This document shows, one piece after another, positions 25,871-29,829 of a stretch of DNA of 64,000 nucleotides. Numbering within the stretch: position 1 is the stretch's first letter; the number at the start of each line of letters is the position of its first letter. The notes beneath the pieces are model-generated. The model was given only the letters and a program-made list of their open reading frames with translations. It had not been told where the DNA came from and did no database searches. This stretch comes from Hydractinia symbiolongicarpus (lineage: Eukaryota): positions 19,579,855-19,643,854 of the forward strand of contig NC_079880.1 in the NCBI RefSeq assembly GCF_029227915.1. Reading direction: 5' to 3'. The position numbers and the translations under genes are program-made.

Positions 25871-28800
25871 TTGTTTTTGTTAATAAATTGTTTTTATCCC
25901 AGTCAGTTTTTTATCCATCTATCATCTAATATGGTAGCTTTGCTGTGTTGTGGGTTCCTGCTGCTCCTTCTGTGTAACATCGTAAGGAAATGGGCTTGCC
26001 TTAGATCCTTCAAACATAGTTTTGGAAGAGCACATAACCGTAGAATGATCTCTCTACGACTTAAAAATAACTTTACTCAGGTAGGAAACCCCACATTTAC
26101 GCTAAAACTGATTTTTGTGTTTGTTGTATTTTTGAGCAATACAAAACCTTCGTTCAAAAGTAGCTCACCCAACAACAACGAAATGAGTCGACTAGATAGG
26201 AGTTTCTTTTCTATCTCTTCACTTGATGCCTGCAATAGAGTTTCTGAAAGCCAGCTCACTCTCCAATTAAAATTAATGGCTTTATCAAAACTTAAGCCAA
26301 GCAGGCACAAGTATTTCTATTTTTTAATCCTCTTGTCAGGGGACATCTGCCTCAACCCAGGTCCTGTTAAGTATCCCTGTTCTTCATGCTTAAAACCTGT
26401 GGCAAAAACACACAAAGCACTTTCTTGTGACAAGTGTGGATTATGGGCTCATAAAAAATGTGAGCGTATTTCTGATAAAAAATATCAACAATTTATGAAG
26501 ACTCCTGAAGATAAACTGTTTTTCGTTTGCAGTCCCTGTCTTTCTCGTAATTTGCCCTTTGCTAATGAGGAGTCATTTGGTGACGAAATTCCGGAAAACT
26601 TTGATTTTGAGGCAATCAGAAATGGAAAGGGCTTAAAAATGGCCCATCTCAACATAAATGGTCTGTCATCCAAACTAGACTATGTTAAACTTCTGCTACA
26701 TCAAACAAAACTTGATGTATTCTCCATCTGTGAAACCAAAATTGATGACACCATCACTGACAATGACGTTAAAATTGATGGCTATGTTTGTTATAGGAAT
26801 GATCGGAATAGACGAGGTGGGGGTGTTCTAATTTTTGTTAATGAAAACTTGGATAGCCACCTTTTGAAACACCTTTACTTCGAAAATGTTGAATCACTAT
26901 GGGTGAAAGTGTGCCTGAAAAAAACTAAACCTATTTACGTGTGTGGGGTTTACAGGCCACCTGGAGGTAGTGATTTGCAGAGTACCGAAAACCTGTGTAC
27001 TCATTTTAAACAGTGTTTTAACAAGCTCCCAAAAGAAAAAGAAGTTTTTATCTTGGGAGATTTTAACTGTAACATGCTTTCAAAATATGCTCTTTCCTCC
27101 AAAATAAAGGAATTATGCTCCACTCTTTTCCTAAAACAACATAGTACGGAGCCAACTCGTGTTACTGAAAATAGTAGCACTCTTATAGACTTGATACTTT
27201 CTAACAGTTCTTGTATTTCTAAAACTGGTGTCATGGATTTAGGCATCAGTGATCACAATTTAGTTTATGTGATCAGAAAATTCAAAAGGCCAAAATTTGA
27301 ACCTAAAACATGCAAGGTTCGTAGCTACAAGAACTTCAGTAAAGAGGCTTTTCTGAAGGACCTCAGGAATTTAGACTGGTCATATTTTAATAATTATGAT
27401 GACCTTGATGAAGCATGTGAGAAACTGAATAAAAATGTTAAAACAGTGGCTGACAAACATGCCCCTTTCAAAACACATAGATTTTCTGGCCGTGTTGAGG
27501 CATGGGTCACTGATGAATTAATAATAGCCATCAAAGAAAGAGACTTCTTGAAACGGAAAGCATCAAAAACAAAATCCATCATAGACTGGGAAGCTTTCAA
27601 ACAAAAAAGGAACCAGGTAATAGGTCTCAAAAATTGACTCAAAAACGAGTACTATAATGACGTTTTGCAGGACTTTCAAAAACGGCCAAAACAACTTTGG
27701 AAAACCCTAAAAAAACTGGTTCCTGATAAGTCAGGCAATACTACCTCGATAAAACGAGTAGTCCAAAACGATGGTACAGAAACTTCTCACCCAAAAGAAA
27801 TTTCCAACACATTCAATTCATTTTTTGTCAGTGTTGGTGCCAAACTAGCCTCTAAATTTTCTTCTGACACTACTAATGTTATTCCACCTGTTAGCGGACA
27901 CGATTTTCGGTGGGCTCGTATTGAGACCAAAAGTGTCAAAAAAATAATTAGTTCACTAAAACTTAATAAAGCTACAGGCTTGGACGGAATTGGTTCACGA
28001 CTGCTAAAAGCAGGTTCGTCAGTTTTAAGTATTTATTTATCAAGTCTTTTCAACAAATCTTTATTTACTGGTTATGTACCTAAATGTTGGAAGACTAAAA
28101 GGGTCTCGCCTATTTTTAAAAGTGGCAATAAAACAGATCCTACTAATTATCGGCCTATCTCCATTTTGCCAATTCCTATGAAAATTTTTGAAAAGTTAGT
28201 GCATGAGCAAATGTCTCATTTTATTTCTGAGCACAACTTCCTGAATGACAGACAGTCCGGATTTCGAAAACTCTTTTCCACAGAAACTGCAGTAGTCGAT
28301 GTCTCTGATTTTATTCTTACTGAGCTCAACCAACATAACTTTGTTTGTGCTGTGCTCATTGACCTTAAAAAAGCTTTTGACACTGTTGATCATAAAATTT
28401 TGTTAAAAAAACTATGGTGTTTTGGCATCAGAGATGCTGCCTTTGACTGGTTCGAGTCCTACTTAACGGGCTGAATGCAGCTGACTCTTGTAAACGACAC
28501 AGGATCAGATCTGCTTCATGAAGACGCTTTTGGGGTGCCGCAGGGATCTGTGTTGGGGCCCCTGCTCTTTCTTTTGTATATTGATGACTTAAAATCTGTC
28601 ATCAATTCAAACTACCACCATCTATATGCAGATGATACAATAATTATTTAGTCTCATAAAAACTTGGATACCCTTGTCTCCCAGGTCGAGTTAGAACTTT
28701 CGCAAGTCGACCTCTGGCTGAATAATAACAAAATGACTATTAATACGGACAAAACTGAAACAATCTTTTTCGGCAACCACAGCCAGTTAAAAAAAGTTGA

Positions 28801-29419
28801 GAACAAAACTATCAACTATATGGGTATTTCTTTGAAGAGGAGCGAAAAAGTTAAATATCTTGGGGTAACATTTGATCAAAAAATGCAATGGGAAAAGCAC
28901 ATTAATGACATAAATAGAAAAATACTAATTAAATATTCTAAAATTAGAACCATTGCATCCTGTTTAACACCTCACACAAAAAACCTTTTAATTAATGCAC
29001 TTGTCATGCCATATTTCCACTACTGCTCCTCGGCATGGGCTTGTGCCACCCAAGGTAGATTGGGAAAACTAGAAAAACGATTAAAATGTGTCCGTACCTT
29101 TTTTGGGAAAGAGAGGGAATATTCAATGAATAATTTACTCATCAAAAACGATGCCATATTAGTTTTCAAAGCCATGAATCACATTGCTCCTGATTACATG
29201 CGCTCAAAATTCCTTTTGACAAAAAACTGTCATAATCATCAAACAAGAGGAGCTTCAAAAAACAGGTTCACACTTCCCTTGGTCAACACGGAATTTGGCA
29301 AAAAAGCCTTCCCATTTAGAGCTGCAAAAGTGTGGAATAATCTTCCAGACCAAGTGACCTGTGATGGAAGTCTGCTTTCGTTTAAGACTTCCATCTCGAA
29401 TGTATTGGGCAAATTCTAA
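25871..29419 (+). pseudogene. LINE ORF2 (endonuclease-reverse transcriptase) with three in-frame nonsense codons
   Basis: ORFs 25871-27637, 27665-28474 and 28664-29419 are all in frame 2. They are separated only by TGA at 27638, TGA at 28472 and TAG at 28648. Motifs present: LLSGDICLNPGP (2A-like), CSSCLKPV..CDKCGLWAHKKC (zinc finger), NINGL..ICETK..GDFN..SDH (APE), and LIDLKKAFDTVDH / [12 protein letters not shown] / LYADDTII (RT blocks). Confidence 0.85.
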
Positions 29420-29626
29420 TGGAGATCACTTTTTAACTTTTTAATTTTTGTTTTTTATTCTTTTTCTTTTCAATTTTCACAGATTATAAATGTTACTATG
29501 TTTGATTGAGCTGAGGCAGTCTAAGGTTTATCATTTTTTGTTTCTTTTTTGTTCTAGTGGCCCCCAGTGGAAACAATCCACTAACTATAGGTTTTTGTGA
29601 TTTTCTGGGCTAGCCACTTTAAATAT

Positions 29627-29829
29627 TTATTATTATTATTATTATTATTATTATTATTATTATTATTATTATTATTATTATTATTATTATTATTATTATT
29701 ATTATTATTATTATTATTATTATTATTATTATTATTATTATTATTATTATTATTATTATTATTATTATTATTATTATTATTATTATTATTATTATTATTA
29801 TTATTATTATTATTATTATTATTATTATT
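29627..29829. repeat. (ATT)n microsatellite, ~67 units
   Basis: A perfect trinucleotide array. It probably forms the 3' tail of the LINE. Confidence 0.95.

Follow-up and report, generated by a model that had tools for sequence, protein, structure and literature searches.

A disabled LINE copy in Hydractinia symbiolongicarpus with a 2A-like motif, GDICLNPGP, in which cysteine takes the place of glutamate

The stretch of Hydractinia symbiolongicarpus DNA analysed here (hereafter the window; 64 kb of contig NC_079880.1 in assembly GCF_029227915.1, positions 19,579,855 to 19,643,854) harbours a long interspersed nuclear element (LINE), recognizable by its apurinic/apyrimidinic-type endonuclease (APE) and reverse transcriptase (RT) domains, by a 3′ hairpin that runs into a microsatellite tail and by what are apparently multiple copies. 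Its single open reading frame (ORF) encodes, ahead of a PHD finger and the endonuclease, a leader peptide that runs into GDICLNPGP, a 2A-like motif in which Cys occupies the position of the Glu of viral 2A peptides. The Cys is shared by a closely related paralogous copy and by a divergent sister family, and is the inherited (ancestral) state of both families; the leader itself is translated and constrained. All coordinates are positions within the window, read 5′ to 3′, and the element lies on the plus strand.

Peptides of this type have previously been described at the N-termini of LINEs, with a PHD finger separating the 2A-like motif from APE, and some of them are active (Odon et al., 2013; PMC3708506). 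In the same study, 2A-like peptides were found to correlate with a single-ORF organization, and the elements concerned belonged to the CR1, L2, L2A, Crack, Rex1 and Ingi clades, examples being CR1-2_NV and Crack-3_NVe from Nematostella and CR1-1/17/26_BF from Branchiostoma. A 'high heterogeneity' was noted at the Glu residue in the CR1 clade, with Nematostella CR1/Crack elements in which Glu is replaced by Ser, Ala, Ile, Gln or Pro (Odon et al., 2013; PMC3708506).

The 2A-like motif and its cysteine

The motif GDICLNPGP is encoded at positions 26339–26365 and is directly preceded by FLILLS, which starts at 26321, exactly where an initial annotation made from the sequence alone had placed both. 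The Cys codon, TGC, lies at 26348–26350, and the putative skipped bond would join the Gly encoded at 26360–26362 to the Pro encoded at 26363–26365. NPGP occurs once across the six frames of the 64-kb window. The counts expected by chance in the LINE ORF are 0.004 for NPGP and 2e-5 for D[IV]xxNPGP, by which a chance motif was ruled out.

Two groups of relatives inform on the history of this segment. The closest protein, P0001 (H. symbiolongicarpus LOC130624320), is 98% identical, and its first 221 residues are those of the window, covering the entire leader and GDICLNPGP. P0001 nevertheless represents a different copy, because it has Arg at the TGA found at 27635 in the window and, in the linker from PHD to APE, an additional eight residues (DNINITID). 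The second group is a sister family, 77% identical and abundant in two ENA assemblies, which was sampled at the DNA level as five contigs with ten copies or fragments and the clusters of which have 100–347 members.

The motif is encoded by GGG GAC ATC TGC CTC AAC CCA GGT CCT in the window and by GGA GAT GTT TGC CTA AAT CCT GGC CCT in the sister copies, which amounts to six synonymous differences, one Ile/Val exchange and an unchanged TGC, the latter being present in 7/7 sister copies; five sister-family proteins likewise read GDVCLNPGP. Across the 20-codon stretch that closes with the last Pro of the motif, the proportion of synonymous differences (pS) is 0.92, and hence saturated, against 0.085 for nonsynonymous differences (pN), and the motif is under purifying selection in the window and sister families. 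NPGP is intact in P0001, in 6/7 sister copies (in the remaining one the final Pro is replaced by Ser) and in the majority of homologues with an intact N-terminus, and the consensus sequences of both the family and the sister family keep it at this position, in agreement with the initial placement of the motif. Since the window shares TGC with P0001 and with each of the seven sister copies, the Cys is no lesion of the window copy.

A broader comparison, restricted to the best 120 homologues of the N-terminal half, yielded 45 segments (41 of them unique) in which the motif has the same location. The consensus of these segments, (F/Y)F-x-L-L-L-L-L-S-G-D-(I/V)-x-L-N-P-G-P, is nearly invariant save at the 'Glu' position, where the 41 unique segments have Ser (15), Glu (11), Asn (7), Ala (3), Cys (2), His (2) or Gln (1). 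Within the Leu tract, Leu is found in 36/41 segments at the last position and in 21–25/41 at the other three. The corresponding tract of the window element, YFYFLILLS, is predicted to be helical up to the Ser that precedes GD.

Measured against class A 2A peptides, the window motif thus has NPGP (26354–26365), Asp and Ile at positions −7 and −6 (G-D-I, with G-D-V in the sister family) and a Leu-rich, predicted helical tract just upstream, and departs from them at −5, where Cys replaces Glu. GDICLNPGP differs from GDIExNPGP solely at this Glu and therefore fits the operational definition of 'Class X' peptides, which carry one substitution in the (G/H)D(I/V)ExNPGP core (2026 preprint, bioRxiv 10.64898/2026.09.24.754024). 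Cys is rare at this site; its presence is a lineage-level variation at a position whose variability in such elements was known before.

The leader peptide and its conserved module

The leader, 144 residues long when counted to the Gly of NPG (25931–26362), is 100% identical in P0001. A comparison of the window with the sister copy L001 gave ratios of nonsynonymous to synonymous substitution rates (dN/dS) of 0.19 for codons 1–60, 0.69 for codons 61–120, 0.11 for the PHD finger, 0.16 for APE and 0.10 for RT. The possibility that the region upstream of the motif is untranslated was ruled out by the ratio of 0.19, the conserved ATG and the identity in P0001, and the inclusion of this region in the ORF, as initially proposed, is upheld by the same observations.

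The leader has a conserved module of ~63 residues (26180–26368), ending in FLILLSGDICLNPGP, with the pattern C-x5-(F/L)F-(T/S)-x-E-S-x-D-x-C-N ... A-L-S-K-L-K ... F-F-x2-LLLLSGDIxLNPGP. The module is much longer than viral 2A, and its alignment is almost gapless in 16 divergent elements that are just 32–60% identical. When a profile of the module was compared with 1.84 billion cluster representatives, 592 matched at E ≤ 1e-3 and, under the stricter limit of E ≤ 1e-10, 192 did so; protein clusters with the Ser/Asn/Cys-type module, some of which have a PHD finger and others none, number at least 592. Among the best 147 new profile matches the core is intact in 108, and the 'Glu' position of these intact cores is occupied by Ser in 53, Asn in 30, Glu in 13, Ala in three, His in two, Asp in two and Cys in one, with four further singletons. 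The description of Glu as usually conserved, on which the initial annotation relied, does not hold for these relatives with the same leader. The module lies before a PHD-like CxxC in 30 cases and directly before the start of APE in 25.

In an AlphaFold2 model of the segment from the leader module to APE, built from a 27-sequence alignment, the helix ends at the Ser preceding GD, GDICLNPG is disordered or of low confidence, and the PHD and APE domains are predicted confidently. The predicted local distance difference test (pLDDT) values of the leader module are 40–61, so the model says nothing about a folded leader domain.

Hydropathy analysis revealed two hydrophobic stretches in the leader, one signal-peptide-like at residues 1–19 (25931–25987, MVALLCCGFLLLLLCNIVR) and the other at residues 51–69 (26081–26137). 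Many unrelated leaders upstream of a 2A-like motif also start with a hydrophobic segment (P0037, P0053, P0062, P0096, P0097 and P0101).

Possible activity of the motif during translation

If the motif is functional, the nascent chain would act in the ribosome exit tunnel through its Leu-rich helix and GD(I/V)xLNPG tail, the ribosome would pause at Gly-Pro and the bond would be skipped at some efficiency (StopGo; FLILLSGDICLNPG/P). The leader would then be released separately, and the PHD-APE-RT protein would begin with Pro. The chances that the motif brings about a degree of skipping or stalling in its native host seem evenly balanced, and any such activity would probably be less efficient than that of viral peptides. 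Some single-substitution 'Class X' 2A-like peptides, including ones from retroelements, are active (10.64898/2026.09.24.754024).

Several points weigh against this proposal and against the delimitation of the element given below. The cnidarian elements L2A-1_NVe as well as Crack-3_NVe, with Glu replaced by Ser, were inactive in vitro (Odon et al., 2013; PMC3708506). Deep mutational scans of the 2A peptides of FMDV (the virus of foot-and-mouth disease) and porcine teschovirus gave no Glu14 substitution above the activity threshold, save His in the teschovirus peptide (10.64898/2026.09.24.754024), and in the structure of a stalled ribosome solved by cryo-electron microscopy (cryo-EM) a base of the 28S rRNA is the stacking partner of Glu14 (PMC12846837). 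A separate limit is that the 5′ end of the element was placed by homology to the sister family and that the candidate target-site duplication amounts to 6 nt only.

A serious possibility, if one that we hold to be short of probable, is that the 2A-like segment is no longer, or never was, skipped in this lineage and is kept as a translational brake (a Leu-rich 'stall-helix') or as part of a fused leader domain. The minority status of Glu among the relatives with the leader module (13 of the 108 intact cores, against 53 with Ser and 30 with Asn) would fit such a role, as would the inactivity of the Glu-to-Ser elements in the tests of Odon et al. and the intolerance of Glu14 to substitution in the mutational scans. 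Conservation, moreover, spans 63 residues, compared with 18–22 for viral 2A, and Leu-rich eukaryotic 2A-like peptides can lower protein abundance instead of, or besides, skipping (2026 preprint; PMC13405545). On the other hand, the NPGP, Asp, Ile/Val and Leu run that StopGo requires are nearly invariant over hundreds of clusters, which is harder to reconcile with a loss of skipping, and certain single-substitution variants do remain active. The published in vitro tests were also performed on short peptides lacking the long native leader, and the low pLDDT of the leader module gives no pointer to the folded domain that a fused leader would imply.

A more speculative extension of the skipping or stalling proposal, which we put forward only tentatively and consider rather unlikely, is that the Ser/Asn/Cys motif together with the 63-residue leader may constitute a nascent-peptide element in its own right, positively maintained in LINEs, and not a decayed viral-type 2A. 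Such an element could skip or stall by Glu14-independent contacts made through the long upstream context and, in combination with the hydrophobic N-terminus, could decide between cytosolic release and tethering of the LINE protein.

Comparison with known 2A-like systems

The window LINE matches the architecture described by Odon et al. (2013) in every respect tested, as the initial annotation had recognized for the 2A-like signature at the N-terminus of an APE-type element, and departs from class A peptides only in the Glu, in the manner described for cnidarian LINEs. It shares with those elements a single ORF without ORF1, a PHD finger between the 2A-like motif and APE, and the substitution of Glu observed in cnidarians. 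It differs in that Cys is not among the substitutions listed there and in the greater length of its leader, with NPGP at residue 142 compared with the ~40–80 residues quoted; Hydractinia, furthermore, lies outside that survey, and the clade of the window LINE is not placed among theirs.

The likeness to the viral class A 2A/StopGo peptides with the D(V/I)ExNPGP signature, such as F2A of FMDV and P2A of porcine teschovirus, resides in the Leu-rich helix followed by S-G-D-(I/V)-x-x-N-P-G-P and in the presence of a downstream protein after the Gly-Pro junction. In contrast to these, the window motif has Cys for Glu14, which contacts A3640 of the 28S rRNA in the cryo-EM structure, and belongs to a retrotransposon instead of a viral polyprotein. 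The 'Class X' peptides were assayed in human cells, in the form of short inserts.

A further parallel is provided by the 2A-like signal sequences of sea-urchin NLR proteins, in which a hydrophobic N-terminal segment is likewise combined with a 2A-like motif and for which dual targeting has been proposed, depending on whether skipping occurs (Roulston et al., 2016; PMC4981915). The sea-urchin 2A-like peptide, 26 residues long, serves as the very signal sequence of a host immune protein, whereas in the transposon leader of the window the hydrophobic segment (residues 1–19) precedes NPGP by ~120 residues.

Organization of the element

A single plus-strand frame extends over 25871–29416 (1182 codons by frame-1 translation and stop mapping) and is closed by a natural TAA at 29417. 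The conserved start is the ATG at 25931, the homologous site of which is kept in the sister copies and at which the NCBI model P0001 also begins, position 25871 being merely the first codon past an upstream stop. The ORF proper (25931–29419; 1162 codons plus TAA) comprises the leader, the 2A-like motif, the PHD finger, APE, RT and a C-terminal region, and is interrupted by three nonsense codons, TGA at 27635–27637, TGA at 28472–28474 and TAG at 28649–28651, with no other internal stops in the frame. The initial description of a frame of ~1180 codons with three stops was thus accurate in length and in the position of the stop at 28472, and slightly off for the other two, which had been placed at 27638 and 28648; the extent of 25871–29829 assigned to the ORF has to be shortened at both ends, with 29420–29830 corresponding to the 3′ untranslated region (UTR) and a (TTA)68 tail.

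Pfam domains follow one another along the ORF in the order PHD, Exo_endo_phos/APE (E 2e-11) and RVT_1 (E 3.5e-36), so that APE (PF03372/PF14529, frame residues 260–465) is N-terminal to RT (PF00078, residues 754–1001) in the same ORF. The PHD finger (26378–26539) is of the Cys4-His-Cys3 type, with the spacing C-x2-C-x13-C-x2-C-x4-H-x2-C-x24-C-x2-C read off the sequence, and scores 29.4 bits with PF00628 when examined alone (cut-off 24) and 20.3 bits inside the whole ORF; its nearest solved structure is MLL PHD3, and its AlphaFold pLDDT is 74–91. The earlier suggestion of a PHD-like finger between the 2A-like motif and APE is hereby confirmed. The APE domain (26648–27265) is recognized by PF03372 (E 2.2e-11) and PF14529 (E 6.4e-8), with a pLDDT of ~90, and the RT domain (28130–28873) has R2 reverse transcriptases as its closest solved structures.

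The ~270-nt 5′ UTR (25660–25930) was delimited by homology to the 5′ ends of the sister family. Three independent sister copies (two in L003 and one in L004) start aligning at one point, GCCAAGTTGTTGTCGAGGTCGGACGT, ~390 nt before their ATG, and the window counterpart, GTGCTTAGCTCTCGTTGAGGTTGGACGT, is located at ~25662; further matches between the window and sister 5′ UTRs are GTTGAGGTTGGACGT versus GTCGAGGTCGGACGT and GTCGAAGAAAGAAAAAAGAAGACT versus GTCGAAGAAAAGAAGACT. The hexamer TAAAAT at 25654–25659, which recurs at 29829–29834, is a weak candidate for the 5′ target-site duplication. Comparison of the flanks of the LINE gave only a 6–7 nt AT-rich match, unconvincing as a target-site duplication and possibly due to chance.

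No ORF of at least 80 amino acids was found between 22512 and 25871, and this, together with a 5′ end at ~25660, leaves no room for ORF1, which makes the name 'ORF2' first given to the reading frame a misnomer. Direct repeats flanking the unit, as long terminal repeats (LTRs) would, were not found, tblastn and blastn revealed no further copies or fragments of the LINE within the 64-kb window, and Rfam and tRNA scans of the window returned no matches. The element, at ~25660–29830 (~4.17 kb), appears from these boundaries to be a full-length single-ORF non-LTR retrotransposon.

The 207-nt 3′ UTR (29420–29626) contains a hairpin at ~29557–29617 (GTGGCC...GGCTAGCCAC), the stem of which is seen in both the minimum free energy and the centroid folds, and is followed at 29627–29830 by the (TTA)68 microsatellite tail, which is 100% pure. 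In an alignment with five sister copies, the terminal ~75 nt of the 3′ UTR (the hairpin and the start of (ATT)n) are ~93–95% conserved between families, compared with 77% for coding DNA. The whole 3′ UTR fold is no more stable than shuffled sequences (z = 0.35), and only the terminal hairpin is supported, because it is conserved. At the same place, the five sister copies (L001–L005) have tails of (ATT)8–9. The long tail of the window copy may result either from expansion after insertion or from unusually long tail synthesis.

A conserved 3′ hairpin is the expected 3′ recognition signal of CR1/L2-type LINEs, for which target-primed reverse transcription with 3′-end recognition is established. 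Retrotransposition of the present element would likewise proceed by target-primed reverse transcription, with RT recognizing the conserved 3′ hairpin and the (ATT)n tail. A 3′ UTR hairpin with a short microsatellite in place of poly(A), as found here, is characteristic of CR1/L2/Rex1/Crack elements. The LINE at 25660–29830 is very probably a recent, full-length and dead copy of an APE-type element of the CR1/L2/Crack-like group, the grouping being made by the 3′ hairpin and microsatellite.

Age, lesions and relatives of the copy

The copy is young, given its 98% protein identity to P0001, the retention of its 5′ UTR and the private origin of all three nonsense codons from sense codons: the TGA at 27635 corresponds to Arg in P0001 and to AGA in the sister family, that at 28472 to CGT (Arg) and the TAG at 28649 to ATA (Ile), both in the sister family. 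It is disabled by the three private nonsense mutations and by a 24-bp in-frame deletion at 26593–26594, which removes the eight codons for DNINITID present in P0001. This deletion was judged against P0001, and the longer linker is also found in the sister family. The lesions thus number four, and not only three as first counted, and of the initial characterization as recent or near-active the first part is borne out by the identity to P0001 and the private stops, whereas the copy itself is dead.

A second Hydractinia protein, P0354 (LOC130628531), is encoded on a different scaffold and is 94% identical across part of the RT region. NCBI annotates both P0001 and P0354 as protein-coding, P0001 being a 691-residue model that ends within the ORF of the element.

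In two contigs (L002:119-11719 and L003:3-9611) copies of the sister LINE share one orientation and follow one another head to tail at intervals of ~4.3–5 kb. In L002 two ~1.3-kb spacers are 98% identical, from which we infer that the LINE-plus-spacer unit was tandemly duplicated; the name of this contig ends in _c, so that a circular molecule or an artefact of assembly is conceivable. The spacers of L003 are unlike each other, which suggests independent neighbouring insertions.

The lesions and relatives also bear on two further explanations. The presence of other private lesions in the copy (three stops and one deletion) might make the Cys appear as one more, namely an inactivating change from an active DIELNPGP ancestor, as the initial annotation had allowed; this is highly improbable, and a private Glu-to-Cys lesion is refuted by the identical GDICLNPGP of P0001 and by the TGC or Cys shared by seven sister copies and five sister proteins despite near-saturated synonymous divergence, a change from Glu (GAR) to TGC requiring, in addition, replacement of all three codon bases. 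Equally hard to credit is that a reverse transcriptase domesticated as a host gene occupies the locus, as the NCBI names 'uncharacterized protein LOC...' of P0001 and P0354 could suggest, in view of the three in-frame stops, the several, apparently dispersed, copies with 94–98% identity and the LINE-type 3′ hairpin and microsatellite tail common to a multi-copy sister family with clusters of 100–347 members.

Other features of the window

Two further repeats lie in the vicinity of the LINE. A 73-nt direct repeat (…CCATGGCCC(C/T)TCCTGGAAATAATAGAC), 85% identical between its two occurrences at 18628–18700 and 30934–31006, 12.3 kb apart, resembles a segment in the L003 spacer and is therefore probably part of another dispersed repeat, a short interspersed nuclear element (SINE) or a LINE tail. 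An inverted repeat at 30419–30732, 0.6 kb downstream of the LINE tail, has 61-nt arms that are 84% complementary and 192 nt apart, and resembles a miniature inverted-repeat transposable element (MITE) or foldback element.

Two ORFs on the minus strand have recognizable domains. That at 56992–58839 is uninterrupted over 616 codons, matches DUF229 (E 1.5e-102) with weak similarity to sulfatases and is probably an intronless host gene, and that at 62298–62894 is a 199-codon single-exon ORF with COMM_HN and COMM domains (a COMMD-family protein), adjoined by a 33-nt tandem repeat in 4.8 copies (62015–62173). Tandem repeats with periods of 58 and 120 nt at 46670–47018, G/T-rich on the plus strand, lie inside a 238-codon ORF (46199–46915), and their reverse strand would encode Asp/Asn/Glu-rich repeats. 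Minisatellites occur at 3654–3862 (35 nt, six copies) and 8660–8811 (11 nt, 13.5 copies).

Significance

By itself, a single LINE copy matters little; its description is useful for repeat annotation in Hydractinia, where NCBI calls paralogous copies protein-coding. The broader, if modest, question, raised by Odon et al. (2013) and revived by recent high-throughput studies of 2A peptides, is why hundreds of LINE lineages keep all of the residues that define 2A but Glu, the very one whose loss viral 2A peptides do not tolerate. The pair of Hydractinia families offers a clean natural test case, in which Cys is combined with Ile or Val, synonymous divergence is saturated and a long upstream context is conserved, and since Hydractinia is a transgenic model organism, assays in the native host are possible. 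What might merit following up is solely the 63-residue leader module and the predominance of Ser and Asn over Glu within it.

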